DNA from: a bacterium | Lineage (GTDB): Bacteria > Patescibacteriota > Minisyncoccia > Phycocordibacterales > UBA9973 | Direction of reading: 5' to 3' | NCBI GenBank assembly: GCA_021831595.1 | Contig: JAKBMK010000022.1 | Span: 1-61,456, forward strand | DNA: 61,456 bases | In this document: one piece after another, positions 15,388 to 47,354 of the stretch | Layout: the number at the start of each line of letters is the position of its first letter | Position numbering within the stretch: the first letter of the stretch is position 1 | Notes under the pieces: model-generated | Database searches by the model: none | The model's input: the letters and a program-made list of their open reading frames with translations, nothing else | Told to the model about the DNA's origin: nothing | Made by a program: the position numbers and the translations under genes

Positions 15388-15403
15388 TGCGGAGGCGGTG
15401 AGA
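15388..15403. repeat. orphan copy of the tRNA-Ser 3' end (putative distal att site of the island)
   Basis: TGCGGAGGCGGTGAGA is identical to 47339-47354. There is no tRNA body next to it. Confidence 0.7.
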
Positions 15404-15449
15404 ACGTGAGTACACTTTTCGAATTTTACATATTCTGTACACCTTTCGC

Positions 15450-15477
15450 GTGATTTTAAATATTAATTTAAAATCAC
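15450..15477. promoter_or_regulatory. perfect 12-4-12 palindrome in the island arm
   Basis: GTGATTTTAAAT-atta-ATTTAAAATCAC. Nearby are GTACAC motifs at 15408-15415 and 15437-15442, plus an inverted copy at 15575-15582. Confidence 0.4.
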
Positions 15478-15540
15478 AAGCTCAAGGTTTTCTCATCTCA
15501 CACGCAAGCAAAGCAGTTTGCTTGCTCGCCTCTGCCCAAC

Positions 15541-15612
15541 AAAAAAGACCCTGACGGGTCATTTTGTACGAGCGGTGTACTCGGGTATGGTACCCGTGGG
15601 TGCAACCCTTGT
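15541..15612 (-). ncRNA. candidate ~70-nt small RNA (promoter + terminator, no ORF)
   Basis: A minus-strand extended -10 TGCTAAAAT (15619-15627) is followed by GC-rich hairpins (CGGGTA-cca-TACCCG) and then a GACCC-gtca-GGGTC + T6 terminator (15541-15560). Confidence 0.25.
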
Positions 15613-15707
15613 AAGGACATTTTAGCATCTTTTTGAGAGTAAGACTAAGGTTTGTGGGTCGCTATGTGTAAATGCCAACAAATGCCAATTTTTGGTATAA
15701 TACGAAT

Positions 15708-16403
15708 ATGAAAATGACAGTCGGCGAATTAGTAGCAAAACAAATGAAAGAAGATAAGAGTTCTTTAACCCTACCAAATGGGCTTCTTCCTCCTGGGGCT
15801 AAAGAGGCTCTAGTATCGATTGCCGATATGAAGAAAAAGATAGAAGAACCACTTAGAAAACAACTTGAAATGGCAAAATTGGCATATGGTAGTATAGCTC
15901 CGCATTTAGATAGAATAGCTGAAATGAATAAGATAGTTCAAGAAAATTACATTATTCCACAAAGAAGGATTCAAGAAGTAAGAATTGTTAATTCTGAAGA
16001 ACTAGGAATCAGATCAAACAGAAAGGAAAATAATGTAGTTGTTGCATCATATCTGTTGCCTAAAAATGCTAATTGGGAAAGTTTAAGCATTCAATTTTTA
16101 GATGGGCATGTTGTTAATGTTTCTTATTCAGGAATGAAATCACAAAAGTTTGATTTTAAAGATATGGGCTTTATGAACATGAAGACGAACAAACCAGATT
16201 TAAAATGGGAATTACTCCGAGCAATTGCGGAAAATAGTGGAGCATTAACTAAGTCTAAATGGAACAGAAAATTTGGGCGAAACGTTAAATATGAACTCAA
16301 TGAGAGATTAAAGAAATTTTTTGGTATGGATTCAAATCCTATTTCTCACTACACTAAAAAAGGAGGATATCGAGCCACTTTTTCTCTCACAGAAGTTAAA
16401 TAG
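15708..16403 (+). CDS. hypothetical protein (first island gene)
   Basis: ORF 15672-16403 trimmed to the ATG at 15708, because TGGTATAAT (15693-15701) lies 6 nt upstream of it. No domain recognised. Confidence 0.55.
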   Translation: MKMTVGELVAKQMKEDKSSLTLPNGLLPPGAKEALVSIADMKKKIEEPLRKQLEMAKLAYGSIAPHLDRIAEMNKIVQENYIIPQRRIQEVRIVNSEELGIRSNRKENNVVVASYLLPKNANWESLSIQFLDGHVVNVSYSGMKSQKFDFKDMGFMNMKTNKPDLKWELLRAIAENSGALTKSKWNRKFGRNVKYELNERLKKFFGMDSNPISHYTKKGGYRATFSLTEVK

Positions 16404-16515
16404 TCATTGGGTGTTAAATGACGATAAAGGGACTTTTTCTTGTTTAAGTAAAAGTCCCTTTATATTTCAGCTATTTCTAATGTCTATTGAATAGAAATAA
16501 AAAGAAATTGTCATT

Positions 16516-17874
16516 TTGTCATTCAATGACGAATATGTTTTAGGGAAGAAGCTAAGAACCTTCCCCGAAGAACATATTATGAAAAAGCAAAAGTTAGTAT
16601 GGTCAGTTACTTCTCGTAAAGTAAGTGACTTAGTAAAAAACGGATACAATCCGAGAAAATTAGGTGAGGGTGAAAAAAGAGACTTAGAAAAGTCTATAAA
16701 GGAATTTGGAGCAGTAGTTCCTGTTATCCTTAATATCGGCTCTAGGTCTAATATTCTTATTGGTGGTGAACAGCGTGTAAAAGTCTATGCTGATCTTGGC
16801 ATAGAAGATGTTGAGTGTATGATACCTTCTCGAGAGTTAACATTAGAGGAAGAAAAAGAACTCAATTTGAGACTAAATAAAAACACTGGATCATGGGATG
16901 AAGAGCTTCTAAAAGAGTTCGAAATGGATATGCTTCTTAATGTTGGTTTTGGAGACGAAGAATTACAAAATCTTTTTGATGATGTAGATCTTGTTGAGGA
17001 TGATTTTGATATTGAAAAAGCTATTAAAGAAACCATTAATCCAAAAGTAAAAATTGGCGAGATATGGGAACTTGGAAAACATAGGTTGCTTGTGGGCGAC
17101 TCCACTGACATAACTTCTGTACAAAAGCTAATGGATAGTGACCTTGCAGACATAATCTACTGTGATCCCCCATATAACATTGGATTGGACTATTCAAAGG
17201 GTGTTGGTAATAAAGAAAAATATCAAGGTTCGTATTCTGCTAAAGATGACTCCAAAAAAGATTCTGATTACATGGATTTTTTAGATAAGAGTATGGAAGT
17301 AGCTAAAATCATAGCTAAGAAAAATTCACATTTCTTTTATTGGTCTGATTCTTCATATCTCTGGATGACTCAGGAATTATACAAAAAGAATGATATTCAA
17401 AATAAAAGAGTTTGCCTATGGTTGAAAAATAATCAGAATTGCACCCCTAAGATTGCCTTTAATAAAGTCTATGAACCTTGTGTTTATGGGGTTATTGGTA
17501 AACCTTATATTAACCCTAACATGAATAATGCCAATGAAATTCTTAATCAAGAAATAACAACCGGCAATCAAGCTCACGATGAGATACTTGAAATGATAGA
17601 TATCTGGATAGAAAAAAGAGACAGTGCTCAATCATATCAACATCCTACTCAAAAACCTGTCACCTTAAATGAAAAACCTCTTAAACGTTGTAGTGCACCT
17701 ATGCATATTGTATTCAGTGGCTTCGGTGGAAGCGGTAGTGATTTAATTGCATGCGAAGAACTTGGTAGATGTTGGCGTGGGGTCGAAAAAGATTTAATCT
17801 TCGCAACTATCATCATAGACAGATGGGAAAAATTTACCAACCTTAAGGCAAAGAAAATTTATGAAAATAAATAA
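16516..17874 (+). CDS. ParB/Srx-like N-terminal domain fused to an N4/N6 DNA methyltransferase (beta class)
   Basis: 452 aa. NPRKL...GAVVPVILN...LIGGEQR is ParB-nuclease-like. DPPYN (motif IV), HPTQKPV and FGGSGS (motif I) follow. An alternative ATG start at 16579 (MKKQKL) is at least as likely as the TTG at 16516. Confidence 0.85.
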   Translation: MSFNDEYVLGKKLRTFPEEHIMKKQKLVWSVTSRKVSDLVKNGYNPRKLGEGEKRDLEKSIKEFGAVVPVILNIGSRSNILIGGEQRVKVYADLGIEDVECMIPSRELTLEEEKELNLRLNKNTGSWDEELLKEFEMDMLLNVGFGDEELQNLFDDVDLVEDDFDIEKAIKETINPKVKIGEIWELGKHRLLVGDSTDITSVQKLMDSDLADIIYCDPPYNIGLDYSKGVGNKEKYQGSYSAKDDSKKDSDYMDFLDKSMEVAKIIAKKNSHFFYWSDSSYLWMTQELYKKNDIQNKRVCLWLKNNQNCTPKIAFNKVYEPCVYGVIGKPYINPNMNNANEILNQEITTGNQAHDEILEMIDIWIEKRDSAQSYQHPTQKPVTLNEKPLKRCSAPMHIVFSGFGGSGSDLIACEELGRCWRGVEKDLIFATIIIDRWEKFTNLKAKKIYENK

Positions 17875-18610
17875 AGGAGGAATCTATAAGGTTGGGAATC
17901 ATGTGATCGGGTGTGGTGATTCCACAGACCAAGTATTTGTGTCTAAGGTAATTGGAAAAAATAAAATACGAGCCATTATTGCTGATCCACCCTACGGTGT
18001 TGCGTATGTAGAAAATAAAAAAGGATTTGCAAAACTCGGTGTTAAAGATGAGAAAATAATTGCAGGCGACCATATCCAAAGTGAAGATGACTATGAAGAA
18101 TTCACTAGAAAATATCTAGGTGCAGTTGTTCCATATTTAGAAGAATATAATGCGTGTTACATATTTAATGCGGATCCAATGTTTCCATCACTTCGTATTG
18201 GTATGAAAAATGCAGGTTTTTATTACAGCCAAATGCTCATTTGGATTAAAAACCAACCTGTGATGAGTCGGAAAGATTACCTGTCGCAATATGAGCTCAT
18301 AGCATATGGATGGTTTGGTAAACATAAGACGGAAAGATCTAAAGCTAAAAATGTCATATATTATCCAAGACCAAATAAATCTAAACTTCACCCAACTCAA
18401 AAACCAATTGGTTTGCTTCGTAAAATTATTCCTGACAATACATCCATAGGAGATATTATTTATGATCCATTTTTAGGAAGTGGTTCTACTGCTATTAGTG
18501 CTGAACATTTAGGTCGAAAATGTATTGGTATAGAGATAGATGAGGGGTATGTATCTATTGTACTTCAGCGACTAGAAAAATTGACTGGAGATAAACCAGT
18601 TAAATTATAA
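17861..18610 (+). CDS. N4/N6 DNA methyltransferase (beta class)
   Basis: 249 aa. DPPYG, HPTQKPIGL and DPFLGSGST. Overlaps the previous gene by 14 nt. Confidence 0.85.
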   Translation: MKINKGGIYKVGNHVIGCGDSTDQVFVSKVIGKNKIRAIIADPPYGVAYVENKKGFAKLGVKDEKIIAGDHIQSEDDYEEFTRKYLGAVVPYLEEYNACYIFNADPMFPSLRIGMKNAGFYYSQMLIWIKNQPVMSRKDYLSQYELIAYGWFGKHKTERSKAKNVIYYPRPNKSKLHPTQKPIGLLRKIIPDNTSIGDIIYDPFLGSGSTAISAEHLGRKCIGIEIDEGYVSIVLQRLEKLTGDKPVKL

Positions 18611-18614: not shown

Positions 18615-18989
18615 ATGAACGAGGAAGACTTCACAAAAGATCCATACAAAAAACAAACATATGAGACATATGCTCTTTGGAAGTCCCTCCCTTCTTTTCT
18701 TAAAGGGCAACCAAGAGTAGCTCTTGAGAAATTTGGAATAAGCGAAGAAATAATATTTGATCTTTTATCAATAAAAACTCAAGCTGAATTTTCAAAGAAA
18801 TATTACATTGATGTTGGAACACTTACCGATTGGAATAAAAGATTAGAAAAAGATGGTCTTACTAAAGATATTAATAGTTGGGCTAGGAAGTTAACTCCAA
18901 ATGTTATCTTTGCTCTTTATAAAAATATAACCAAGAACGGCAGGGCTCATGAAGTGAGAGCTTGGTACGAATTAATTGAAAATAACTAA
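18615..18989 (+). CDS. small hypothetical protein with probable helix-turn-helix (terminase-small-subunit-like feel)
   Basis: 124 aa. AEFSKKYYIDVGTLTDWNKR looks like an HTH. Starts 5 nt after the MTase stop. Confidence 0.35.
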   Translation: MNEEDFTKDPYKKQTYETYALWKSLPSFLKGQPRVALEKFGISEEIIFDLLSIKTQAEFSKKYYIDVGTLTDWNKRLEKDGLTKDINSWARKLTPNVIFALYKNITKNGRAHEVRAWYELIENN

Positions 18990-18990
18990 T

Positions 18991-19185
18991 ATGGAAAACA
19001 TTAACTTAAATGAAATAAATACAATTCTCTCTGATACTCTTCGAAAAGTAATAAGTAAAGAAATATCGCTAAAGAAAGCAAGTATGATAGCAAAACTTGC
19101 CTCGACACTTTCAAAGAATATCGTGAATGTTGAATTGAAGGATAGAGTCGAATTTCTTGAACAAGCACTTAAAACAAGACGATAA
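18991..19185 (+). CDS. small coiled-coil hypothetical protein
   Basis: ORF 18976-19185 trimmed to the ATG at 18991 (MENINLNE...), 2 nt after the upstream stop. Confidence 0.4.
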   Translation: MENINLNEINTILSDTLRKVISKEISLKKASMIAKLASTLSKNIVNVELKDRVEFLEQALKTRR

Positions 19186-19188
19186 TAT

Positions 19189-20706
19189 ATGAAAAATCTA
19201 GCAAACATTTTAAGAAGATCTAACCTTTCTCCAAAAGAAAGAATTGTTACTATAATTCAAAATGAAGTTTATAAAGAAAAAAATGGCAAAGGAACTCTTA
19301 CTGAATCCGAAATCTATTCTTTGTCACAAGGATGGACACCAAAAGATTCTTATGAAGCTAAAGAATATAATAAATATTTGGAAGCATCTAAATTAGAAAA
19401 ATCTATGAGACTAGACGCACGAATGTTTGCATATAGATCAGAGAATTTATTATTAAGGAGTAATATATTAATCAATTATACAACATACTTAGAAAATACC
19501 TTGGATGATTTTAAGAAAAATGAAACCGTAAGTAGATATGTACCACAAGAAGAAATAATCAATTTTATAATGGAAAATACATATCTTTGTTACGATAAGC
19601 TAATTCATATATTTACTTTCAATAATCTTTCTATGAATATTAGAGACGACCTACTTCTTTTGGATGAGTATGCATCTTACGACAGTAAATATTTAGAAGA
19701 TGAAGTTTTTCTTTATGAGATATTTAATAAATCAACACCTTTGGATGCACAAAATAAAGATACTCTCATTAATCATATATTTTCTCGTATGTATAATGAT
19801 GGTTTTAGAAAAATAAAAAATGGGTCAGAAAAAGATGGTTTTATGTTATTGCATTCTTTCGCAGAACTTCCAATAAATAAAGTATTCGAGAAATGGGCTG
19901 AATATGCTCATATTAATCTTGATGAAAAAAATATCAGTACTGAAAATTATTTACTTAATAAATTTGAAGAATATTCAAAAGAAAAAAACCAAACGATGAA
20001 AATGATCGTAAAAGAGACGTTATCTAGATGGATAGATAATGGATTATTCGTATCCGAATATGCTCCTTTATTTTTTAGTAACAGAAAAGATACATGGAAT
20101 GGAAATGCAAAACTTACACATAAAGAAATTTTTACAAAATGGTATACAGAATTACAAAAGACAAAAACATTTATTGGCAATCTTGTTTCAGATGGAACTT
20201 TAGAAATTAAATTTATTGATAGAGAGATTTTCAGTACAATAGAAAAAATTAAGATTGTAACAAGCAAAAGTTTATATAAATGTAAATTGGATATTGATTT
20301 TGTAAAAGAATGTAAAGATCAAATGATGGTGTTATCACCAGTAGTAGGGTTATTTTTGTTTATAAAAAAGAATAATAATCCACTAGTAAACTACAAAACG
20401 CTGAAATCTTTTTGTGAAATAGCACAGATTTTTTCTGATATATTTGATATTGATATGACGGATAAATATTCAGAATCTTTGCAATCTTTTGAGCAAGAAC
20501 TAAATATGATAAATATTACTTTTAGCAAATTACTCGATAAGGTAAGTGGTCTTTTATATACAGATAAAAATATAAAGTATGTTTTAGAAATAAATGATGA
20601 TAATTTACTTTTTAATTTAAACGACAGATCGTCTCAAGTTGCAGATAGTATTATCGATGATTATAAAGGCGAACTTAAAAAGATGGGCTTCAGGACTGAT
20701 ATGTAA
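19189..20706 (+). CDS. large all-alpha hypothetical protein
   Basis: 505-aa uninterrupted ORF starting 4 nt after the previous stop. No motif recognised. Confidence 0.6.
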   Translation: MKNLANILRRSNLSPKERIVTIIQNEVYKEKNGKGTLTESEIYSLSQGWTPKDSYEAKEYNKYLEASKLEKSMRLDARMFAYRSENLLLRSNILINYTTYLENTLDDFKKNETVSRYVPQEEIINFIMENTYLCYDKLIHIFTFNNLSMNIRDDLLLLDEYASYDSKYLEDEVFLYEIFNKSTPLDAQNKDTLINHIFSRMYNDGFRKIKNGSEKDGFMLLHSFAELPINKVFEKWAEYAHINLDEKNISTENYLLNKFEEYSKEKNQTMKMIVKETLSRWIDNGLFVSEYAPLFFSNRKDTWNGNAKLTHKEIFTKWYTELQKTKTFIGNLVSDGTLEIKFIDREIFSTIEKIKIVTSKSLYKCKLDIDFVKECKDQMMVLSPVVGLFLFIKKNNNPLVNYKTLKSFCEIAQIFSDIFDIDMTDKYSESLQSFEQELNMINITFSKLLDKVSGLLYTDKNIKYVLEINDDNLLFNLNDRSSQVADSIIDDYKGELKKMGFRTDM

Positions 20707-20713
20707 AGCAAAT

Positions 20714-20753
20714 AACAATAAAAGGATGATTATATAATCATCCTTTTATTGTT
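20714..20753. terminator. bidirectional terminator (40-nt perfect palindrome)
   Basis: AACAATAAAAGGATGATTAT|ATAATCATCCTTTTATTGTT, between convergent genes. Confidence 0.8.
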
Positions 20754-20769
20754 AGATATTTACTCAAAC

Positions 20770-21756
20770 TTATTCCTTACTACCATCAGCGTAAATGATT
20801 GTTTTAACTTCCCATTTATACTTTAAATTAGTAAATTCTGTATCTTTCAATTTAACATCTTCATCCATAAATTGATTGTAGTCTATTCCTGATTCCCAAA
20901 CCTTACTTTGATGAGCAGGAATTGATTTATCATAACCAACACTTATTGCTTTAATTTTATTATCAAAAATATCATAAAAGGTTAAGACACCTTCTACTCC
21001 CTTAATATCTTTGTCTGTTTCATTGGTTAGTTTTAGATTCATTTGAATCTGATCTTGATAAGTGCCAGAGGTATAATCAGCTTCATAAAAACTCTTTTTT
21101 GTTACTTCAAGACTAACTTTATTTGCTTGAGTGCTTGGTGTTTGAGTATCTGTTTTAGTTACTCCTCCTTGTTGTAAACTTTTACTTAATTCTTCTTTTG
21201 CCTTAGCAACACTAGCAACATGTTTTGCTGTAGAGATTGAACCCATAATAATTGCTAATACAATTAATGCCACAATAGAAAGAATTACACCGTGTTTAGT
21301 TGATGAATTTTCTATTTGTTTTATACCTGATGCTTCTGCTTTTTTCTCATACTTCTTTGTAACTAAATGCATAATTATTCCTCCTGCAATTCCTACCATG
21401 AAAGCAATTATAGTAATAAATGTTCCACCAATGGCAGTTCCTATTGCACCACCCGCCTGTTCAAATTCATTAGCTGATGAAGAAATAACTTTTGAGCCAA
21501 TAACGAAAGTTAAAACTAATGCGGATACTGGAAGCAAGAAGAAAGAGATTTCTGTTAAACGAAAAAATCTTTCTAAAATATGATTCTTCTCCGTAAACTG
21601 ATAAACATTCCAGATCATTAAAATCCAGATAATTAAAAAACCTATACCCATATAAGAGTTACCCGTCATCCACGCATAATTTTGCCAAAAAATTAAAGCG
21701 GGTAACAATGCTAACAAAATCTTAAGAGACAAATGCTTTTTGATATTGTTTTCCAT
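20770..21756 (-). CDS. multi-pass membrane protein with C-terminal extracytoplasmic beta domain
   Basis: 328 aa. About 6 hydrophobic helices, a Gly-rich helix (GGAIGTAIGGTF), then a soluble C-terminal domain of about 120 aa. Confidence 0.6.
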   Translation of the reverse strand: MENNIKKHLSLKILLALLPALIFWQNYAWMTGNSYMGIGFLIIWILMIWNVYQFTEKNHILERFFRLTEISFFLLPVSALVLTFVIGSKVISSSANEFEQAGGAIGTAIGGTFITIIAFMVGIAGGIIMHLVTKKYEKKAEASGIKQIENSSTKHGVILSIVALIVLAIIMGSISTAKHVASVAKAKEELSKSLQQGGVTKTDTQTPSTQANKVSLEVTKKSFYEADYTSGTYQDQIQMNLKLTNETDKDIKGVEGVLTFYDIFDNKIKAISVGYDKSIPAHQSKVWESGIDYNQFMDEDVKLKDTEFTNLKYKWEVKTIIYADGSKE

Positions 21757-22041: not shown

Positions 22042-24495
22042 TTAATTTTGAGCGGTTTTATTTTTTGCTATACGTTTCTGGTGTTTCTTATCCCATTTTT
22101 TATGCCACTCTTCTTCCCAAGAAGGCAGGTTCAAATAGATTTGTTGTGTCGCATCACATACAGGCAACAAGCCAGTTATATGATCAAAATTTTTCTTCCA
22201 AGGTTCAGGCCAACAATGTGGGACACCAGGGAATTCTGTTAATTCAGTATTTGTAAGAACGAGTACCGGATTTATTGGTCGACTGTTTTTCCAATATTTT
22301 CTTCCTACTTTTGCGATTTTAGTTATATTTTTTATTTCATATGCAGTAAGTTCTTTTTTCATAGTACAAAATACAATAACGGCACCTGGAAACTTTTTAG
22401 CTAATCCGGACATTCTGTCAAAATCTTTCTTCTCAAAATCACTAAAGCTTTTACATTCAGCAAATAAAACACCGCTACAATCATTATTTCTGTTTGATTT
22501 TTGTTCCCAAAACCCAGCAAAATCAGCTTCCAGTTTTTTGCCTTCTTTGTCTGTTGCATTAAAACTAAAAACAGGAGAAAATTTTGTACCAATTAAGCTA
22601 TGCTCATTAAAGAAATTTACTCCGAGTAATACTGAAAATGCACCATCAGCATGTTGAGGAACACTGAAAGGTCCTGATGTTTTATAACTCCATGTTGAAA
22701 TATGTATGTTTCCAATAGCAGGAAAAGAATGAAGGCATTTAGGGCATACGCAAAGATCTTTAACATCATCAAGTTGATACCAAGATTTTCTAAAACACTC
22801 TGGGCATTCTATTTTTAGACCTAGCCTAAATATACCCTTTGATAAAAGATATTCATGTAAACTTTCGTCAGAACCTCCTCGACGGCTTTTGAGTTTGGCT
22901 TTTACTTTATCAACAGATAGATCTCTGCCTTCTTCTAGTTCAATATTGGTTGTAGCTTCATCTTTGTAAAGATTTTTCCCACCATTCATGTGGTCCAAGA
23001 CTTTTAATAAACTTTCATTTCCAAGAGTTGCAATATGACCGTCTAATTTATTATATATCTGCTTTGCAAGAACCCCTGGATTAGATAATTTAGAAACCCA
23101 CCCCTGGTCTTCCAGCCATGCGAAGAAAGTTTTTTCAGAAGTAGGGATATCCCAATATTCCTTAAGTGTATCTTTCACAAGATACACGAGACCATTTCTT
23201 CCAACTCTCCATTCGTTCCTAAAAGATCCCTGACTAGAAATAGCTCGAATAAACTTTTCACCAGTACTTCTAGGTAAAACTTCTGCCATATATTCATTTG
23301 AACCATAGAACCTAAAACTGATTTCGTTGGCGCAACACGGTTCACTATCCATACTTTTATCTTGTGTAAACTTTGGAAAGACTGGATTAAAATGAACTCT
23401 AAACTTCTCCATGTCTGTAATTTCTATGGAAGTTTGTTGTTCATATGTATCATTGGGGTCTGCACCATCATAGGCCCTGCCTCCACTCTCATCCCATATG
23501 CGTGGATACCAATGTTGTAAGCTAAAATAGCCAAATTTAGAAGTATCTTTCGGATCGTCAATTTTTACTGAAGATGCAAAAAAATTACTCATATCATCCA
23601 TGTCACAATTTCTGCCTCTAATTATAGAGACTACGTCAAATACGCCACGTTGATGTTTCCACTCATGCCTATTAGCTTTAATGAACTTAATCATTTCATC
23701 TTTTAGACTTTGATTGTCTCTTAATTGTTTAGGTAGAGGAAATACAGAACGTCCAAGGGCACGCAGATTCCAAAAATCTACAATATCCAAATGTTTTGAA
23801 GCATCAAAATAAAATACTGCTGCCTCTTTTCGGAAGCCAGAGTGTCTAAAGTGTTCAAGGTTTCCTTGTGTTGCTCGTCTAGGAAAAATATTATCTCCAT
23901 GGAAAAGATCACCAACCGAGGATAGGTCAATATCAATTTCTTTTATATCAAGCGGTTTGTAATAATTTTTTCTTAAAGCATCAAGAGTTTTGTCTGGGAA
24001 TTCACCGAAGATGCTTGCCCATAAAAGTGGATACTTGTTTGGTATTTTAGGAATAATAACCTTAACTGGATATTTGGGTTTATATTTAAAATGTATTTCA
24101 AATATTTCATTAAAAACATCAAAGATTCCGATACCAAAATGAGCTTTAAATGGACTACTGTAAACACCGTGTTGTTGCCAAATTTCATTAGGACTAATGA
24201 TTCTTAGTCCTGTATCTCTCACGAAAGCTGGAATCTCTTTTGAAAATTGAACAAGAATATCGGGGTCAAAGGAATCAATATATCCAAGAATAACTTTTTT
24301 AGGTTCTGGTGCTTTGATTGGACCTTCACGCCAAGTTTTGGGCATTTTCTTATACAGAGGAATAATTGGATTATAAACTCCTCCCCATAATGTGGAGCTG
24401 ATTTTAATTGCCTCACGAACTTGCTCCGGTGAATTTGGGTCAACGAGATAAGCAAGCTTTAGTGGTCTAACTTTTATATCAACTGTTCCTAACAT
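22042..24495 (-). CDS. large hypothetical protein with Zn ribbon and PD-(D/E)xK-like C-terminal region
   Basis: 819-aa ORF. Start moved to the third codon (ATG 24495) because a minus-strand TGCTAAAAT box (24502-24510) lies exactly 6 nt upstream of it. CPEC...(20 aa)...CPKC ribbon at about 22730-22820. EADFAG...VLFAECKSF (D...ExK pattern) at about 22450-22530. Confidence 0.65.
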   Translation of the reverse strand: MLGTVDIKVRPLKLAYLVDPNSPEQVREAIKISSTLWGGVYNPIIPLYKKMPKTWREGPIKAPEPKKVILGYIDSFDPDILVQFSKEIPAFVRDTGLRIISPNEIWQQHGVYSSPFKAHFGIGIFDVFNEIFEIHFKYKPKYPVKVIIPKIPNKYPLLWASIFGEFPDKTLDALRKNYYKPLDIKEIDIDLSSVGDLFHGDNIFPRRATQGNLEHFRHSGFRKEAAVFYFDASKHLDIVDFWNLRALGRSVFPLPKQLRDNQSLKDEMIKFIKANRHEWKHQRGVFDVVSIIRGRNCDMDDMSNFFASSVKIDDPKDTSKFGYFSLQHWYPRIWDESGGRAYDGADPNDTYEQQTSIEITDMEKFRVHFNPVFPKFTQDKSMDSEPCCANEISFRFYGSNEYMAEVLPRSTGEKFIRAISSQGSFRNEWRVGRNGLVYLVKDTLKEYWDIPTSEKTFFAWLEDQGWVSKLSNPGVLAKQIYNKLDGHIATLGNESLLKVLDHMNGGKNLYKDEATTNIELEEGRDLSVDKVKAKLKSRRGGSDESLHEYLLSKGIFRLGLKIECPECFRKSWYQLDDVKDLCVCPKCLHSFPAIGNIHISTWSYKTSGPFSVPQHADGAFSVLLGVNFFNEHSLIGTKFSPVFSFNATDKEGKKLEADFAGFWEQKSNRNNDCSGVLFAECKSFSDFEKKDFDRMSGLAKKFPGAVIVFCTMKKELTAYEIKNITKIAKVGRKYWKNSRPINPVLVLTNTELTEFPGVPHCWPEPWKKNFDHITGLLPVCDATQQIYLNLPSWEEEWHKKWDKKHQKRIAKNKTAQN

Positions 24496-35523: not shown

Positions 35524-35524
35524 A

Positions 35525-37903: not shown

Positions 37904-37908
37904 TAATT

Positions 37909-38688: not shown

Positions 38689-38691
38689 TTT

Positions 38692-39180: not shown

Positions 39181-39187
39181 ATAATAT

Positions 39188-40219
39188 ATGGAACACGAAA
39201 ATCAAAACAATGCGTCTTTAGAAAATAAAGAAGAAATATCAAATCAATTACTTGAGGCTAAAGCAGTTAAAAAAGATCGTCTACTCTCTGCAAGTATTTT
39301 AATTTCTTCAATAATTTTAGGTGGAGCTTTAATCTACACAGTAGGACCTAAAAGCGGAACTGGGCAAAGTGCAAGTGCTGCAGGGCAACAAACACCTGTA
39401 TCAGATTTAGAAGGAAAAGTTTTACCAGCAAAGGGTGTAACATTACCTGCTGTCTGGGGTGATTTGGGTGTAAAATTAGTAGATGCTGGAGTTATAGATG
39501 CTGATAAATTTAAATCAATCTATGAACAAAGAGGTCAATTTACAGAAGAATACAGGAAATTACTTCTTGATCAGAATAACAAGAAAATAAAAATAACAAA
39601 AGAAAATTCAGGTTATATATTAAACTTGTTTTGGGCTCTTGGTTTAGCAAATAAAAATGAGATATTAGAAAAAGGAGAAATGGTGGACCCTCAATACGGT
39701 GGAGCGGGTAATTTTGCCTCAACTGGTGGTTGGACTATTGCCAAAGGTGGATCAATGGACCATTACAGTAAACATGCTTTCTTCACACTAACTTCAGAAC
39801 AACAAGCTCTTGTAGATAAAGTATCTCGTGGTATTTATCGACCATGTTGCGGTAATTCAGTCCATTTCCCTGATTGTAATCATGGAATGGCGATGCTAGG
39901 ACTTCTCGAATTAATGGCTTCACAAGGAGCTAGTGAGCAAGATATGTGGAATACAGCACTAACTGTCAATTCATACTGGTTCCCTGATACTTATCTAACA
40001 ATAGCTACTTACATGAAGAATAAGGGTATTGATTGGAAGAATGTAAATCCACAAGAGATGTTAAGTGCCGAATACTCTAGTTCAAGAGGATATGCCAACA
40101 TTGCTTCTCAAGTAAAAAAGCCCAATAGTCAAAGTGCTGGTGGAAGTGGTTGTGGTTTAGGTGATACAGGTGCGTCTGCCCCTGCTTCTCAAAGTCAGCA
40201 GACTGGTTGCGGGTTGTAG
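39188..40219 (+). CDS. membrane-anchored hypothetical protein with CC/C/H cluster and Cys-Gly tail
   Basis: 343 aa. One TM helix, RPCCGNSVHFPDCNHGMAM, and a tail ...GGSGCGLG...QQTGCGL. Confidence 0.5.
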   Translation: MEHENQNNASLENKEEISNQLLEAKAVKKDRLLSASILISSIILGGALIYTVGPKSGTGQSASAAGQQTPVSDLEGKVLPAKGVTLPAVWGDLGVKLVDAGVIDADKFKSIYEQRGQFTEEYRKLLLDQNNKKIKITKENSGYILNLFWALGLANKNEILEKGEMVDPQYGGAGNFASTGGWTIAKGGSMDHYSKHAFFTLTSEQQALVDKVSRGIYRPCCGNSVHFPDCNHGMAMLGLLELMASQGASEQDMWNTALTVNSYWFPDTYLTIATYMKNKGIDWKNVNPQEMLSAEYSSSRGYANIASQVKKPNSQSAGGSGCGLGDTGASAPASQSQQTGCGL

Positions 40220-40235
40220 TTAAATACATTGATTT

Positions 40236-40469
40236 ATGAAAGAAAAAATAATTCATCAGCTTAAGATTGAAGAAAACAAGATTAAAAAAATAATTAAAGC
40301 AATTGATAGTAATAAATGTATAGATGATGTTCTGGTTCATATAAGTGATGCCAAGAAAACATTATTAACTATCAGATGTATGATTTTACAAGAATACTTA
40401 CTTAAGGTTGCTAAACAAAATAATTTTCCAAAAAGACAAGTTCTCAAATATTATAAATTAACAAATTAA
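40236..40469 (+). CDS. CsoR/RcnR-family (DUF156-like) metal-sensing repressor, divergent ligand set
   Basis: 77 aa. Helical L..I..Q...I...I......C.D.L.....A...L pattern. It has Cys28 and Cys48 but not the canonical C-H-C spacing. Confidence 0.5.
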   Translation: MKEKIIHQLKIEENKIKKIIKAIDSNKCIDDVLVHISDAKKTLLTIRCMILQEYLLKVAKQNNFPKRQVLKYYKLTN

Positions 40470-40487
40470 ATATGAAAAAACATTAAA

Positions 40488-42251
40488 ATGAATGAATTTA
40501 TAAAAAATCAAAAACTAAAAAAAGTAAGACTTAAGGTTCATGGTATGCACTGTGCAAGCTGTGAAGTCTTAATCGAACGAAAATTCAAAAATGTTTCTGG
40601 GATAGAAAAAGTTAACATTAATCACGCAAGTGGACATGCTGAACTTATCTGTTCACAAGATCCAGATATAAAGCAACTAAATAATTTAGTTAACAAAGAA
40701 GGTTATCATGTTTCGTCGTGGGAAGACCGCAATGAAAGCATTCCAGATATCACACAAAAAAACACCAAAACAGATTATTTACAAATGGGATGGATCTTTC
40801 TTATAATTGTTTCCATATATTTTATATTGAAACAATTTGATTTTCTGCCAAGTATTTCTGTTGATGGAAGTATGAGTTATGGTGTGATATTTATTATTGG
40901 GTTAGTGGCTGCTGTTTCATCTTGCATAGCGGTTGTAGGAGGATTATTGCTGGCACTTGCAGAAAAGTATAATCAATCTCATCCAAACCTGACTGGAATT
41001 CAGAAATTTAAACCTCATATATACTTCAACATTGGACGTGTTCTAGGATATACAGTGTTCGGTGCTTTGGTTGGTGCCCTAGGGTCAGTATTTACTATAT
41101 CTCCCAGAGTTAATGGATTCCTGATGATATTTGTAAGTGCTATTATGCTCCTGCTGGGATTTCAATTACTACATCTTTTCCCTGGGTTGAGAAGATTTAG
41201 TCCAAGAATGCCAAAATTTATCAGTCATAAAATCCATGATCTTAGTGGAAAAGATAGTAAAAGTGCACCAATGACACTCGGTGCTTTAACATTCTTTCTG
41301 CCTTGTGGATTTACTCAGGCATTACAGTTATATGTTTTAGCTAGTGGTGACTGGAAGATAGGAGCTTTAACAATGCTTGTGTTCTCGCTAGGAACTCTAC
41401 CAGCTTTAATTTCACTTAGTGCTGTTTCAAGTTTCGCAAAGGGTGTATTTCAAAAACACTTCCTTAAATTTGCTGGTGTCCTTGTAGTTATGCTCGCACT
41501 ATTTAATATAAATAATGGGCTAACTCTTGCTGGGTATAATTTTAATCCAGCCGAAATTTTTGCTTCAAAATCAAGTAATGCAGAAAGTTCTGGTATACCT
41601 AAAGCAGAGATAGTAGATGGAAAACAAATTGTCAGAATGAAAGTCAGTGGTTACACTTATACCCCTAATAAATTTACAGTTGTTGAAGGTATCCCCGTTG
41701 AATGGCAAATTGATGGAGCTTCAGCTGCTGGTTGTGGAAAAGTAGTTGTCATGCCTTCTTTAGGATTAAGTAAATATCTGTCACCTGAGGGTATAACTAC
41801 GATAAACTTTACCCCCACACAAACAGGAACAATCCCATTTAATTGTAGTATGGGAATGATGACTCGTGGCTCTCAATTTACAGTAGTTCCGAATACTACT
41901 GGAGTCGTTGGTGCAAAAATAGAAACTCCAGCTGAAACATCAACACCTACGTGTGATCCTTCTGTTTCAAAATGTCCAGACACTCAGAAACTCTCCATTG
42001 AAGTTTCTCAAGAAAAAGGTGTTTACCCTAGATCGTTAACTGCCAAAAAGGGAGTACCGATTGAATTAACAATAAATAATAAAGTTGCACTTGGTGGCTG
42101 TATGTCTATATGGGTAATACCAGAATATGATATTACTATGCCAATGAAAATTGGTGTTATTAAGAACACTTTTACACCAACAGAAACTGGTGTCTTAAAT
42201 ATTACTTGTAGTATGGGATCAAAAATGGCCGAAATTATTATTAAAGATTAA
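40488..42251 (+). CDS. HMA domain + DsbD_2/TauE-like membrane domain + two cupredoxin-like domains
   Basis: 587 aa. VHGMHCASCEV (HMA), FFLPCGFTQA in the membrane core, and two C-terminal beta domains ending in NCSMG / TCSMG. Confidence 0.65.
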   Translation: MNEFIKNQKLKKVRLKVHGMHCASCEVLIERKFKNVSGIEKVNINHASGHAELICSQDPDIKQLNNLVNKEGYHVSSWEDRNESIPDITQKNTKTDYLQMGWIFLIIVSIYFILKQFDFLPSISVDGSMSYGVIFIIGLVAAVSSCIAVVGGLLLALAEKYNQSHPNLTGIQKFKPHIYFNIGRVLGYTVFGALVGALGSVFTISPRVNGFLMIFVSAIMLLLGFQLLHLFPGLRRFSPRMPKFISHKIHDLSGKDSKSAPMTLGALTFFLPCGFTQALQLYVLASGDWKIGALTMLVFSLGTLPALISLSAVSSFAKGVFQKHFLKFAGVLVVMLALFNINNGLTLAGYNFNPAEIFASKSSNAESSGIPKAEIVDGKQIVRMKVSGYTYTPNKFTVVEGIPVEWQIDGASAAGCGKVVVMPSLGLSKYLSPEGITTINFTPTQTGTIPFNCSMGMMTRGSQFTVVPNTTGVVGAKIETPAETSTPTCDPSVSKCPDTQKLSIEVSQEKGVYPRSLTAKKGVPIELTINNKVALGGCMSIWVIPEYDITMPMKIGVIKNTFTPTETGVLNITCSMGSKMAEIIIKD

Positions 42252-42257
42252 ACATAT

Positions 42258-42578
42258 ATGAAATTATCACAAAGTTTGAAAGTTTTGATAGGAATAGGAT
42301 TCTTGATATTACTCGCATATATCTTAATTCCTAATTTTGCCAAATTTTCATGGATTCTATTAGTTTTAGTTTGTCCTCTTTCTATGATTTTTATGATGAA
42401 AACAATGGGTCATAATCATGGAGGAACAGAGAAAGTTTTTGTTTGTCCAGAATGCGGTTCATCTTATGAAGACGCAATGTCAGCAAGAAAATGTGCAAAC
42501 ATGTGCAAGGAAGAAAATGGTCGTAATTCAAAAATTATTAGCCCTCAAAGAAATAAAAATGAAAACAACTGTCATTAA
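42258..42578 (+). CDS. DUF2933-like small membrane protein with C-terminal Zn-ribbon
   Basis: 106 aa. LVCPLSMIFMMKTMGHNHGG, then CPEC...CANMC. Confidence 0.45.
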   Translation: MKLSQSLKVLIGIGFLILLAYILIPNFAKFSWILLVLVCPLSMIFMMKTMGHNHGGTEKVFVCPECGSSYEDAMSARKCANMCKEENGRNSKIISPQRNKNENNCH

Positions 42579-42771
42579 AATAAATGGTATTCACTGCAAG
42601 TCTTGCAAAATATTAATAGAAGATGTTTGTAAAGATATTAAAGGAGTTAAATCGTGCTGTGTCGATGTTCAAACAGGAAAAACATTACTAGAATATGATG
42701 AAAATTTTGACTTTGCTGTGTTTAAAAAAGAGGTTGAAGGTTTAGGTCAATACAAAATAGAAATTAACTAA
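42559..42771 (+). CDS. copZ: copper chaperone CopZ-like HMA protein
   Basis: ORF 42418 trimmed to [21 protein letters not shown] (MxCxxC). 70 aa. Confidence 0.75.
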
Positions 42772-42772
42772 T

Positions 42773-45700
42773 ATGAATACAAATAAATTGACCTTCTTGA
42801 TAGAAGGAATGCATTGCGGTTCTTGTGAGATAATAATTAAAAATGAATTATCGGAATTACCAGGGGTAAGTAATATCTTGGTTGATTCTAAGTCAGGTTC
42901 TGCGGAGTTAACTCTTGATAGTTCAAAAAATAACATTGAAGATGTTGTTTTAGCAATAAAACAAGCTGGATATAATGCCGAACTTCAATCTGAATTAAAA
43001 ACTGAAGAAAATGAAAAGGATATAACAATCTCTACGAATTATGGAGATAGTAAAGAACCATTAAAAATTAAATTAGAATCTAAAATCTTAGCAGAGGGAA
43101 AAGTTTTGGAAGATGGTAATGGCAAAACATATTTTGATGGAGTTATTAAAAATAATCGTTCGGCAGAATTTATAATTCCAGAAAATTCTCTTGAAGTAGA
43201 TAAGTTAGTCGGACAGTTGAGTAAAACAACTACCATTGCTAGATTGTTTGATATAGTTTCAGGCGAAAATCACAAAAATGAAAATCTTAAAAAATCCTTA
43301 CCTGAAAATAAATTCAATGAAGCAACACCAGAGCTTGTTGTCACTGAAAATAATTCTAATCAAAGAATAAGTTTGTCCCTTTTTGGAATGCATTGTTCAT
43401 CATGTGCAAATATTATTGAACGATCTTTAAAAAAGGTGTCGGGAGTCAAGCAGGCTAATGTTAACTTTGCCGCAGAAAAAGCAAGTATAGTTTATGATCA
43501 ATCTCAGGCAACCACGCAGAATTTAATTGATGCTATAGGTAAGGCTGGCTATAAGGCAGAATTAGTTGATTCGAAAGATGGAGATTATGAACGCAAAAAA
43601 CGCGAGAAACAAACTAATTTGTTCTTTAAATTATTTTGGTATAGTTTTGCTTTGAGTGTGCCAATGTTGTACTTCATGTTGCTAGATTTCTTTGCTATAC
43701 CTGGAAAAACAGCGGTCTTGCCTTATGTTGGCATTATTTCTCTTATACTAACTATCCCAATTCAATTTATAATTGGATCAGGGTTTTATAAAGGAATGTG
43801 GTCATCTCTTAAGATGAAAACATTTAATATGGACAGTTTGATTGCTATTGGTACATCTACAGCTTTCTTTTACAGTCTATTTAATTTTATAAATTATTTT
43901 GTAAAAACTGGATCATTGATAGGTCTTAATGGAAAAATTCCAGAGTTATATTTTGAAACAGCAGCATTCTTGATTACATTTGTTATTCTTGGAAAATGGC
44001 TTGAAATACGAACTAAAAGTAAAACAGGAGATGCTATCAAAAAGCTTATGGGCTTGCAGGCTAAAACTGCACGGGTAATTAGAAACGGAGTTACTGTTGA
44101 TGTTCCAGTTGAAGATGTAATACACGGTGATATTATTATGGTTCGCCCTGGTGAAAAAATACCAGTAGATGGAAAAATAACAAAAGGAATATCTGCAATA
44201 GATGAATCCATGATTACAGGTGAAAGTCTACCTGTCGAAAAGAAAATTGGAGATAATGTAATTGGAAGTACTGTAAACAAAACAGGTAGTTTTGAATTTG
44301 AAGCTACCAAAGTAGGAAGTGAAACAGCTTTAGCTCAAATTATTCGATTAATCGAAGATGCCCAAGGATCAAAGGCACCAATTCAAGGATTTTCAGACAG
44401 AATATCTGCGGTCTTTGTGCCAATAGTTATTGGTATTGCAATACTAACTTTCGTAGTTTGGTATTTGTTTTTAGGATCAACATTAGCTTTTGCATTAATG
44501 GCATTTACTGCTGTGATTGTAATTGCTTGCCCTTGTGCTCTAGGTTTAGCCACACCTACATCGTTAATGGTTGGTACAGGTAAAGGGGCTGAATACGGTA
44601 TTTTAATAAAAGGTGGTGAGCCATTGGAAGCGGCTTGTCATATAAATACTGTTGTGTTTGATAAAACTGGTACATTAACAAAAGGTAAACCAGAAGTTAC
44701 TGATATTATTTCCTTTGAAAGCACAGATGAAGATGAAATATTAACTATTTCTGCTAGTTTAGAAAGGCTATCAGAACATCCTTTGGCGGAAGCAATTTAC
44801 ACTTATGCAAATGAAGAATCAGTGAGTCTAGATGAAGTTAAAGATTTTTCAGCTATTCCAGGACATGGAGTAAAAGGTATAATCGATAATACTGAATATT
44901 ATTTTGGAAATCGTCGTTTGATTACAGAAATCCTTGGCCTTTCGATTAGTAAAGTTGATCGCAAGTTAACTAAGCTAGAGGAACAAGGAAAAACCGCGAT
45001 GATTCTAGCTACTAAAGAAAAAATATTAGGTGCTGTTGCTGTTGCTGATACAGTCAAACCTACTTCTTTTGAGGCGGTTGCTAAGTTGAAAAAAATGGGC
45101 ATCACAGTATATATGATTACTGGTGATAATGAACGGACAGCTAGAGCAATTGCTTCTCAAGTTGGAATTGAAAATGTTTTAGCTGAAGTATTGCCAGAAG
45201 ACAAAGCAAATGAAGTTAAAAAACTCCAACAAAATAACAATAAAGTTGCGATGGTTGGAGATGGTATTAATGATGCTCCAGCTCTTGCACAGGCGAATCT
45301 TGGTATAGCCATGGGTTCTGGTACAGATGTGGCTATGGAGACAGGAGGTATCGTGATCATGAAGAATGATTTAAACGATGTTGTCACTGCATTTCAATTA
45401 TCACGAGAAACAATGTGGAAGATTAAACAAAATATGTTTTTTGCATTATTCTATAACATAATTGGAATACCTATTGCAGCCCGTATATTTATAGGTTTTG
45501 GGTTAGTCTTAAAACCTGAGTTAGCTGGACTTGCAATGGCATTAAGTTCAATTTCAGTAGTTGGTAATTCACTATTATTAAAATACTTTAAACCAAACAA
45601 GAGAAACTATATTTCCTTAGTTGCTCCACTTGTGATGGTTATTGTATTCACGTTCGGTTTTATAGAATTTGCTAAATTAAGTTCAGGAATGGAAAACGAA

Positions 45701-46468
45701 GGACCTAAAACAATGGTATCTATTGAAGGAGCATCAACGCTCAATACGTTTATAGCTAATGGACAGACTAAGATAAATTTTGCCGAAGGCAATCCTAAAT
45801 TGTTTTTAGGGGCAGATAGTATGCCTGGTATGTTGAAAGCTAATCAAGGTACTTTAATTATTGGTGATAATGAAATTGTGATTGGTTATGACGAAGCAAT
45901 GATGATGATAAAAGAGAATCTAATTAAAGGACCAGGCGATGTATTAAACAATTTCTTTGGTCTACCTTCTGTAAAAATTGTAGGAATTATTGAACCTACT
46001 GGAACATTGATTGATAGCTATCATTTCGTAAACAATGCAACACTAGCTAACCTGACAAGTAGTGCTACGGTTAAGCATGTCGCAGAAAAAGAGATTATAA
46101 AGAGTTTCTATTTTGATGTAGCTCCTGTTGCTCCGTTAATAGAAGTTACTGATTGGTACGGAGTAAAAACATTCATTAAAGATCCAAAATTTACTTTTGA
46201 TGTAAACAATATTCCGACCCCAGAAAAACTAAAGAATAATATTCAAGGATTTAGTGAAATATCCTTGGGTGATAAAAAATATTTACCTGTGTATATCGGG
46301 TTTAGTGAGGCGAAAATGATGATAGACGCTAAATTGTTTACAAAAGCTGGTGATACGATTGAGAATTTCTTTGGTAACAATGTAATGATTGCGGGAATAT
46401 TGCCAGAAACTAAAACTAGTCTTGATACCATGCATTTTGTTGGACAAGGGTTTGAATTAGTAAAATAA
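42773..46468 (+). CDS. copA: Cu(I)-type P1B-1 ATPase CopA with two HMA domains and a ~400-aa C-terminal extension
   Basis: 1231 aa. GMHCGSC and GMHCSSC; [10 protein letters not shown]; YFETAA; YNIIGIP; MALSSISVV; DKTGTLT; GDGINDAP. An extra TM helix and a duplicated domain follow the ATPase core. Confidence 0.92.
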
Positions 46469-46491
46469 ATTAACAAAATAAATATAAAGAT

Positions 46492-46893
46492 ATGAACAAA
46501 AAAATTGTTTTTTCACTAATTGGAGTTGTAATAATTGGATTATCTATTTTTCTATTGAGAGGTAATAATATTGTGCCTTCAATTAAAGTTAATGATCAAC
46601 TTATTTCCAATGAAAGTGTTGTGGTAGAAAGTGTGACTGCTGTAGCCCCTAGCTGGCTCGTTATACAGACAGAAACCAACGGAATACAAGGTCCCGTAAT
46701 CGGATATACTAAAATTGTTAAAGGTGAAAATAAAAATGTCAGTGTAAAAATTGATTCAAGTAAAAAAACACCTAAGCTCTTCGCTATGATACATGAAGAT
46801 AATGGTGAAAAAAATAAGCTTGATTTCCCTGATAATGACATGCCATTACTATATAACGGTGAGATGGTCCTCCAATTATTTTCTGTTGAATAA
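46492..46893 (+). CDS. secreted hypothetical beta protein
   Basis: 133-aa ORF with a signal anchor. Confidence 0.5.
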   Translation: MNKKIVFSLIGVVIIGLSIFLLRGNNIVPSIKVNDQLISNESVVVESVTAVAPSWLVIQTETNGIQGPVIGYTKIVKGENKNVSVKIDSSKKTPKLFAMIHEDNGEKNKLDFPDNDMPLLYNGEMVLQLFSVE

Positions 46894-46944
46894 TAGTTTC
46901 AAAGTATTATAATTAATACATTAAAAGATTAAACGTATAATTAA

Positions 46945-47166
46945 ATGAAATTATCAAAATTATTACATGTAGCCAGTGTTATAGTGGGAGTAATTGGAAT
47001 TATTGTGTTTATAAGTGCTGTTTTTGGAGGGTCTGATAATGTTGTGTTTGGAATAACTAAGTTTGATGCTTTGGTTTGTGCTGGAATAATTATTCTTATT
47101 GCAATATGGCTTGGAATAGGAACAATTCATCATGTAATAATAGAACAAAAAGGAGGAATTCTTTAA
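46945..47166 (+). CDS. small 2-TM hypothetical protein
   Basis: 73-aa ORF, hydrophobic. Confidence 0.4.
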   Translation: MKLSKLLHVASVIVGVIGIIVFISAVFGGSDNVVFGITKFDALVCAGIIILIAIWLGIGTIHHVIIEQKGGIL

Positions 47167-47203
47167 TTTCGAAGATAGCGCTAGAGAAGTCTGTTTATCA
47201 CTT

Positions 47204-47229
47204 AAAAAACGCCCCTAGGGGCGTTTTTT
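47204..47229. terminator. bidirectional terminator
   Basis: AAAAAA-CGCCCC-ta-GGGGCG-TTTTTT. Confidence 0.75.
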
Positions 47230-47338
47230 AAGTAATAGTGCTATATAATATTTATACCCCCATATACATGCTTGTAAGTAACACATTATTTTATGGACCT
47301 TATAGCTTTGTGGGTCACCAAAACTAACAGGTTGTCAA

Positions 47339-47354
47339 TGCGGAGGCGGTGAGA
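47339..47354. repeat. proximal copy of the 16-nt att repeat (inside the tRNA-Ser 3' end)
   Basis: TGCGGAGGCGGTGAGA is identical to 15388-15403. Confidence 0.7.

Follow-up and report, generated by a model that had tools for sequence, protein, structure and literature searches.

Cargo-carrying elements beside tRNA genes are known from Prochlorococcus, the tycheposons of which can lie in tandem at one site and carry metal homeostasis genes; 910 of 937 such elements have tyrosine recombinases, a minority have a large serine recombinase (LSR) and many have replication genes (Hackl et al., bioRxiv 10.1101/2020.12.28.424599). For Patescibacteria, an island survey has been based on composition-based prediction, with integrases and target sites not addressed (PMC12455944). 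Our literature searches turned up neither LSR elements at tRNA-Ser in Patescibacteria nor a tRNA-mimicking module of the kind described below. Here we analyse a 61,456-nt window (the whole stretch of DNA examined) from a metagenome-assembled genome (MAG) contig, JAKBMK010000022.1, and compare it with loci in other genomes, which are labelled with L-numbers. Positions 15576–47338 of the window are, with high probability, a single integrative element that was inserted directly 3′ of a tRNA-Ser(ACU) gene by its own LSR. The recombinase and the features at and beside the two ends are the following.

15388–15403, plus strand: left 16-mer (TGCGGAGGCGGTGAGA), the first 16 nt of the A module; a reverse-complement copy of the tRNA-Ser acceptor and T-stem 3′ end
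15388–15540, plus strand: A module (tRNA-3′-end mimic), about 150 nt, of the subtype with a 14-nt insert (ACGTGAGTACACTT) at 15404–15417; its parts are a conserved hairpin (15421–15435), a long stem-loop, TCTCAC (15498–15503; the forward tRNA-3′-end-like segment), an inserted hairpin and CGCCTCT (15527–15533)
15541–15571, strandless: bidirectional terminator-like hairpin AAAAAAGACCCTGACGGGTCATTTT and a GTACGA linker; a near-identical copy lies directly before tRNA-Ser(GCU) in L181
15572–15575, strandless: left junction core GCGG, the putative crossover region on the attL side, from junction comparison with L017 and L027
15576–15665, plus strand: P′ arm, TGTACTCGGGTATGGTACCCGTGGGTGCAACCCTTGTAAGG ... 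GTTTGTGGGTC, kept in the L017 and L027 elements at the corresponding end (motif scan)
24607–25938, plus strand: LSR, the integrase (Resolvase, Recombinase and Zn_ribbon_recom domains; catalytic motif YARKST)
47306–47338, plus strand: P arm, CTTTGTGGGTCACCAAAACTAACAGGTTGTCAA, shortened relative to the family consensus and conserved beside tRNA-Ser in about 40 loci
47339–47343, strandless: right junction core TGCGG, attR side, which opens the right 16-mer
47340–47427, minus strand: tRNA-Ser(ACU), the integration target (ARAGORN)
47525–47612, plus strand: tRNA-Ser(GCU), its divergent partner, with the 3′ end ...CTCCGCA (47607–47613) as the outer breakpoint common to alternative arrangements

The element proper spans 31,763 bp, and its left end lies 188 nt inside the boundary drawn by the first-pass annotation, which had taken all DNA between two copies of the 16-mer as the island. 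Homology between the window and L017 starts at 15572. The arm TG(T/C)ACTCGGGTATGGTACC(C/T)GTGGGT... follows directly after TGCGG in L017 and L027 and after GCGG (15572–15575) in the window, and the left neighbour of this P′ arm differs in each of the three. At the other end, approximately 75 nt abutting the tRNA are conserved in about 40 loci (...CTTTGTGGGTCRC-hairpin-GGGTCAYCAAAACTAACAGGTTGTCAA, then TGCGGAG), independently of the isoacceptor (TGA, GGA, GCT or ACT). The LSRs of L017–L020 and the window are 98.6–99.5% identical as proteins (approximately 90% as DNA) and abut tRNA-Ser genes that diverge right after TGCGGA(G); strand exchange is therefore placed inside those bases. Both junctions share (T)GCGG only, flanked by element-specific conserved arms. 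A motif scan detected no second P or P′ motif inside the element, and no P, P′ or core junction of any recognised type was found in 15666–47305. Within the element, the motif (G/C)TTTGTGGGTC stands at 15650–15660, approximately 75 nt from the left end, and at 47306–47316, approximately 33 nt from the right end; sister elements keep it in both places, and it may serve an accessory protein or regulation.

The recombinase belongs to a large family. A search of contigs representing one genome per species gave 174 LSR matches, of which the best 80 were retained for family statistics, placing the family in at least 80 species genomes; nearly all hosts are bins assigned by their labels to Patescibacteria groups (Nomura-, Zambryski-, Vogel-, Kaiser- and Giovannonibacteria and other Paceibacteria) or left unclassified, whereas the labels of a few name other phyla. 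At 55 of the 80 loci, a tRNA-Ser gene (TGA, GGA, GCT, ACT or CGA) lies on the opposite strand 109–8604 nt past the LSR stop (median, 2317 nt); these are the loci at which the distance could be measured, and most of the other 25 end at contig ends. The first-pass annotation had counted the internal serine recombinase as part of the island, and rightly so: it is the integrase of this widespread tRNA-Ser-associated family. The 443-aa protein matches PF00239, PF07508 and PF13408 in Pfam, phrog_95 (2e-64), and SPbeta SprA and TP901-1 Int in the PDB.

Two related arrangements were observed. A sister family of element ends (L116, L125, L128, L178, L180, L220, L234 and L005) consists of the core, 16 nt, TTCGAAC and a short hairpin, with an LSR 2.7 kb off and 33% identical in L125. 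The T-loop-like TTCGAAC stands 16 nt from the core in the element arm versus 11 nt in the tRNA, which recalls the spacing difference of approximately 5 bp between LSR attP and attB half-sites. In the window itself, a second LSR gene (60012–61394, minus strand; confirmed by Pfam, with 33% identity to the first) is truncated at the edge of the window; it lies tail-to-tail with a tmRNA gene (59667–60058) in the geometry seen for LSR and tRNA-Ser, and probably represents another integrated element, at ssrA.

We propose that the element would enter between the A-module terminator and tRNA-Ser(ACU). In the circular form, attP would consist of the P arm (...CTTTGTGGGTC...AACTAACAGGTTGTCAA), the core (T)GCGG and the P′ arm (TGTACTCGGGTATGGTACCC...), giving the predicted circle junction ...AACTAACAGGTTGTCAA-TGCGG-TGTACTCGGGTATGG...; the predicted restored chromosomal site is ...GGGTCATTTTGTACGA-GCGG-AGGCGGTGAGATTCGAAC. 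Strand exchange with the tRNA-Ser 3′ end would occur inside TGCGG(AG)—the last acceptor bases, the discriminator and two trailing bases—such that the tRNA would stay intact and only 4–5 bases would be common to the two junctions. The exact crossover dinucleotide is presumed to lie there, and the element may still be active. The conserved backbone genes (the methyltransferases, unannotated genes and LSR) occupy the P′ side, and variable cargo occupies the interval between the LSR stop and the P arm.

The 16-mer had suggested different boundaries. TGCGGAGGCGGTGAGA occurs exactly twice in the window, both times on the plus strand (15388–15403 and 47339–47354), and allowing up to two mismatches on either strand adds no copy; dinucleotide-preserving shuffles gave a mean of 0.01 matches, and none of 100 reached two. 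The reverse complement of the right copy comprises one trailing base, the discriminator, the 7-nt acceptor 3′ strand, the 5-nt T-stem 3′ strand and one T-loop base of the tRNA-Ser that ARAGORN calls at 47340–47427 on the minus strand (anticodon ACT (ACU)). The left copy has no tRNA body and begins 10 nt past the stop of the MscL gene at 14979–15377 (Pfam MscL, 7e-38). Window search, ARAGORN and Pfam agree with the first-pass description and coordinates of both copies throughout. Its explanation of them was that 15404–47338, module body included, is one island that crossed over in the 16-nt block, the left 16-mer being a displaced tRNA fragment; the junction so predicted is ...GGTTGTCAA-TGCGGAGGCGGTGAGA-ACGTGAGTAC.... 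Such a crossover is favoured by the exactness of the 16-nt direct repeat, expected approximately 0.01 times by chance, by conspecific strains that lack both the A module and the element, and by L166, in which the module–terminator–element unit occurs twice in tandem.

What decides against it is that the repeat belongs to a module with a distribution of its own. The core motif of the A module (TTCGAANNTTACAGNTTNAGTACA) matched in at least 119 species genomes, nearly all Patescibacteria; counts of anatomy and neighbours rest on 126 modules among the matches listed. Such a module, with its repeat, lies directly beside a tRNA gene in 80 of these 126 cases (110–330 nt away, opposite strand, no island between), and the adjacent tRNAs cover at least 13 amino-acid specificities (Ser 43, Tyr 14 and Arg 6, and further Pro, Cys, Gln, Asn, Val, His, Ile, Trp, Glu, Asp and Lys). 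The Nomurabacteria genome L181 encodes an enolase 80% identical to that of the window; in it, a module of the same subtype is followed by the terminator, GCGG and tRNA-Ser(GCU), next to the same flanking gene and without an island; the module–tRNA joint there is the exact point at which the LSR element sits in the window. Conversely, L017 and L027 have the P′ arm but no module, and LSRs that are nearly identical lie against tRNAs that diverge inside the 16-nt block. Exact identity between module and tRNA extends over a median of 21 nt in the simple subtype and 15.5 nt in the subtype with the 14-nt insert, to which the window belongs, and the 16-nt repeat is therefore a family-typical feature of the module; the 5′ copy of the tRNA 3′ end is exact over approximately 21 nt in half of the module copies. 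Only L061, L077, L079, L046 and the window have tRNA-derived repeats of at least 16 nt upstream of the LSR; each proved to be an A module, and we rejected them as integration scars. Nor was a tyrosine integrase, the enzyme expected of a classic tRNA scar, detected: Pfam gave no Phage_integrase match among the scanned island open reading frames (ORFs) of at least 73 aa. The first-pass model is thus very improbable, and the repeat is no longer to be read as an integration duplicate.

The A module has a constant anatomy. It starts with a reverse-complement copy of the neighbouring tRNA 3′ end as far as the T-loop TTCGAA, continues with the hairpin GAA-N-C/TTACA/G-N′-TTC, AGTACA and the long stem-loop, then has TCTTCGAATC and a degenerate, hairpin-split forward copy of the T-stem and acceptor 3′ strands of the same tRNA, and is followed by the bidirectional terminator and the real tRNA. 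The fold of the window module has a minimum free energy of −56.1 kcal/mol (z = −7.4), and homologues with compensatory changes are present in L031, L091, L079 and others. Among 117 modules, the N:N′ pair is G-C in 50, A-T in 45, C-G in 17, T-A in 2 and non-Watson–Crick in 3; RNAalifold reports double changes in 9 of 15 pairs, and G·T pairs are approximately 3.5 times as common as A·C pairs on the module strand. The inner helices covary across the aligned sequences. RNA-level selection on the outer helix was considered and found to be unsupported (identity between the forward copy and the tRNA end is 69%, with no wobble bias). Also rejected was a tRNA gene or pseudogene, as ARAGORN calls no gene at 15388–15540. 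Rfam 15 gave chance-level matches only (E ≥ 0.5), and the module motif had no match in 2.9 million IMG/VR viral contigs. Modules stand in tandem at tRNA 3′ ends in L148, L156 and L197, and at least two sequence types exist, A1 (TTCGAANCTTACAG...) and A2 (ATTCGGTCACGAATCACTAAG...). A semi-conserved TTCGCTTCGCTCA-like motif was also seen in two places (L099, L113, L124, L192, L215 and others): the long stem carries it in its loop, and it recurs between module and tRNA, where in some modules it stands in for the terminator.

In L046 and L079, an element is inserted at the 5′ core of the module itself, and the tRNA-like end of the module can hence act as a second target. The A module may be new in kind. 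We tentatively suggest, as an idea that could well prove mistaken, that it is a new structured, tRNA-associated and probably transcribed class of Patescibacteria sequence: either a second landing pad or decoy for the recombinase, steering the insertion, stacking and inversion of LSR islands, or a small non-autonomous insertion by which tRNA 3′ ends are duplicated. With the LSR subfamilies that target tRNA and tmRNA 3′ ends, it would form an island-traffic system specific to Patescibacteria and without a tyrosine integrase.

Strains of the same species differ at this locus. Exact-protein look-ups of two flanking genes led to independent assemblies (a look-up with a GtrA-like ORF returned no record). 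The window junctions recur at 100% identity in L001, L003, L004, L007, L008 and L010. Since the source is a MAG contig, a repeat-driven mis-join has to be considered, but in independent assemblies from other samples the left junction is matched at 100% (L003, L004 and L007), as is the right one (L008, from ENA, and L010), leaving an assembly artefact scarcely conceivable. In further contigs, MscL is identical as a protein and the left flank 98.7% identical, yet different DNA is attached at this junction. L002 keeps the mscL stop and the 10-nt spacer; there, a complete minus-strand tRNA-Ser(GCU) comes next, then, after a spacer, a plus-strand tRNA-Ser(ACU) and finally a homologous thiol/ATPase module, only 73–83% identical to window positions 36736–29808. 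In L013 and L015, the tRNA-Ser(ACU) 3′ end directly joins the right flank; in L012, L009, L011 and L014, a different element end does so, with CCGCA alone retained; and in L005, other DNA comes after mscL, following TGCGG. All breakpoints of these variant strains fall at TGCGG/CCGCA, the extreme 3′ end of the tRNA-Ser sequence, and their tRNA-Ser pair is inverted relative to the window. The first-pass annotation had regarded all DNA between the 16-mers as acquired, which holds in so far as strain-variable, acquired DNA of a mobile family lies between them; the A module and its terminator, however, are separate from the element. The empty site that it predicted, mscL directly next to tRNA-Ser(ACU), was not seen; conspecific mscL instead abuts tRNA-Ser(GCU), with the tRNA pair inverted.

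Because the module and the tRNA-Ser 3′ ends both carry the core, the block between the outermost cores (TGCGG at the module 5′ end and CCGCA at tRNA-Ser(GCU)) is found in either orientation among strains. It could, we suggest, be flipped or replaced as a whole, which would explain why mscL lies at tRNA-Ser(GCU) in L002 but at the module in the window, and why L031, which is more distant, has the module next to the mscL2 flank. A self-complementary crossover dinucleotide, GC or CG, would allow the recombinase to make the flips; homologous recombination between inverted element copies, or allelic replacement via near-identical flanks, would be alternative causes. The last of these could be extended to the whole locus, with an allele received from a conspecific donor, for example by natural transformation, and the repeat and arms inherited rather than fresh scars. 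Flanks of 98–99% identity around entirely different inserts with the same outer breakpoints, competence-type genes (PilM and ComF-like) in the left flank and the two orientations of the block would fit such an exchange. It leaves the first entry between module and tRNA unexplained, however, and conserved arms and tRNA-Ser association in 55 species need site-specific integration at some point; as an account of the window it is unlikely.

Several features of the neighbourhood were recorded alongside. Two MscL paralogues (14979–15377 and 48135–48506, both plus strand) flank the variable locus on either side. tRNA-Ser(ACU), mostly as a divergent pair with tRNA-Ser(GCU), is also present in L035, L050, L052, L074, L088, L091 and L181, and the ACU anticodon (A34) is kept across several Paceibacteria genomes; A34 is unusual in bacterial tRNA-Ser. 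Between recG and ftsH, the window has a gene with an ART-PolyVal domain, tRNA-Ile(UAU) and a helix-turn-helix gene (55560–57090), where L009 (8868–9093) has approximately 230 nt instead and matches the tRNA-Ile in opposite orientation.

Beyond the LSR gene, the element contains a backbone shared with sister elements and a long run of cargo. Island ORFs were scanned against Pfam, PHROG and PADLOC; the Pfam scan between the repeats covered ORFs of at least 73 aa, and one 78-aa antisense ORF was compared with PHROGs only.

15672–16403, plus strand: backbone gene (243 aa), no Pfam or PHROG match, in the block conserved with L017 and L030
16516–17874, plus strand: ParB_N–N6/N4 DNA methyltransferase fusion (Pfam; phrog_498 at 3e-84)
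17861–18610, plus strand: N6/N4 DNA methyltransferase (Pfam; PADLOC MTase_II)
18615–21756: backbone genes of 124 aa (plus), 505 aa (plus) and 328 aa (minus), 86% nucleotide identity with L017, no family or PDB match
22042–24501, minus strand: 819-aa gene at a variable position, without homology in other loci and without Pfam, PHROG, PADLOC or PDB match
26002–28486, plus strand: arsR, arsD and arsA (cargo), linked to the LSR likewise in L243 and L244
28504–29534, plus strand: split cation-efflux (CDF) gene and YlbF-like gene (cargo)
29800–36712, minus strand: P-type ATPase (644 aa), two DsbA-like proteins, transglutaminase-like protein, class-V aminotransferase and unannotated ORFs (cargo)
36819–47166, plus strand: DUF1573 protein, CsoR-like repressor, DsbD_2–cupredoxin–HMA protein, HMA protein and 1231-aa CopA-like P-type ATPase (cargo), together with unannotated ORFs, a DUF7282 protein and a 73-aa ORF

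No phage or conjugation machinery was detected. PHROG and Pfam scans of the island found no capsid, terminase, portal or tail genes; Pfam gave no match to a relaxase, coupling protein or type IV secretion system in the island, in which five ORFs have no annotation, nor any primase, helicase or polymerase domain; and PADLOC reported the two methyltransferases only. On these grounds, we set aside prophage, integrative and conjugative element (ICE), integrative mobilisable element (IME) and defence-island readings; nor do the genes make it a tycheposon. PDB sequence searches with the 505-aa and 819-aa proteins gave no match. The CDF gene (28504–29123) consists of two overlapping ORFs in different frames and is probably a pseudogene; the collinear L244 element has no CDF counterpart between arsA and the YlbF-like gene.

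Homology between the window and sister elements with LSRs of more than 98% identity stops at the LSR stop codon, and the interval from the LSR to the P arm is therefore the cargo slot. In the window it measures 21.4 kb, filled with arsenic, Cd/Zn-type and Cu-type P-ATPase and thiol-redox genes, and is the largest of the 55 elements measured and 2.5 times the next largest; in the five most compact members, 109–123 nt separate the LSR from the P arm. The cargo might have been assembled stepwise, with the LSR core of approximately 10 kb, the ars genes, the thiol/ATPase module and the copper module acquired separately by integrations or homologous exchange. The abrupt end of homology at the LSR stop and the exceptional slot length would be expected from such a history, and the homologue of 29800–36712 (73–83% nucleotide identity) lies in a different element type beside tRNA-Ser(ACU) in strain L002; tandem junctions of different element families also exist in L027, L220 and L234. 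Against it, 15666–47305 contains no internal att-type motif and the element only one recombinase gene, and two loci of one other Nomurabacteria MAG (L243 and L244) have an LSR of 62–64% identity followed by arsR-D-A, which in L244 continues with YlbF, ATPase and DsbA in the order of the window. We regard a composite origin as rather unlikely; it is, moreover, a matter of history and would not keep the present unit from moving as one element.

Composition gives weak support for foreign origin. The GC content is 0.337 inside the element and 0.362 and 0.369 in the flanks, so that the comparison put forward in the first-pass annotation does yield a value approximately 3 points lower inside. A weak signal fits exchange within an AT-rich Patescibacteria gene pool, and the closest ArsA relatives are likewise in Patescibacteria. 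The lowest GC of the window (0.27–0.30) is at 19000–21000, over the 505-aa and 328-aa backbone genes.

Several observations weigh against a single element inserted by its own LSR. Known LSR attB sites have two recognisable half-sites, and here the half outside the tRNA shows no conservation. The LSR lies 21 kb from the P arm, compared with 0.1–8.6 kb in other members; part of the cargo could have entered by other routes, and the shortened P arm of the window might be impaired. No conspecific empty site was found, and since the tRNA pair is inverted, some further rearrangement or an allelic replacement must have taken place. For chunks of the element, tetranucleotide distances (1.5–2.1) barely exceed the flank-to-flank noise (1.2–1.6 for flank chunks). 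In JGI metagenome contigs, the circular P–core–P′ junction (ACAGGTTGTCAATGCGGTG) was not found for this family; the 27 matches were mostly an unrelated soil-bacterial gene, with two tandem junctions of a different P′ type and one tRNA. No recombination directionality factor was identified.

Gene exchange in ultra-small, host-dependent Patescibacteria is poorly understood, and an LSR with two arms and a 4–5-bp core provides a mechanism that can be searched for by sequence. Island boundaries in fragmented Patescibacteria genomes become predictable to the base, and the family offers a natural set of LSR/att pairs whose target is embedded in a tRNA. In Patescibacteria, a second copy of a tRNA 3′ end need not be the scar of an integration, and repeat-based island finders would misplace boundaries there.

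Among known systems, the element resembles LSR phages and ICEs (phiC31, Bxb1, TP901-1, A118 and SPbeta SprA) in its three-domain integrase with a catalytic serine, the minimal shared junction sequence and the element-specific conserved arms; the most compact members of its family also have the integrase gene at one element end by an att arm, where the window has 21.4 kb between the two. It differs from them in its target, which is the extreme 3′ end of tRNA-Ser of any isoacceptor rather than a protein-coding gene, in its Patescibacteria hosts and in having no detected phage structural or conjugation genes. With tycheposons it shares the use of a tRNA-side site and niche-adaptive cargo including metal genes, although no primase, helicase or polymerase was detected here; partial-tRNA flanks are integration duplicates in tycheposons, whereas the tRNA-like repeat of the window is a separate module. 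Islands of the Islander type, which use tyrosine integrases (PMC4383910), likewise target tRNA 3′ ends, are bounded by an intact tRNA on one side and a repeat derived from a tRNA on the far side, and have cargo that varies between strains, but the element described here has no detected tyrosine integrase, its crossover lies outside the bulk of the repeat, and the repeat pre-exists at island-free sites. The A module, in turn, recalls tRNA-like minihelices, tRNA-derived att fragments and integron attC sites in its exact tRNA 3′-end start, long closing helix, inner hairpins and tandem arrays. Unlike those sites, both of its arms match the local tRNA, so that it is not a fixed-sequence mobile repeat, and unlike a simple att scar it has a conserved, covarying inner domain that would be superfluous for a scar.

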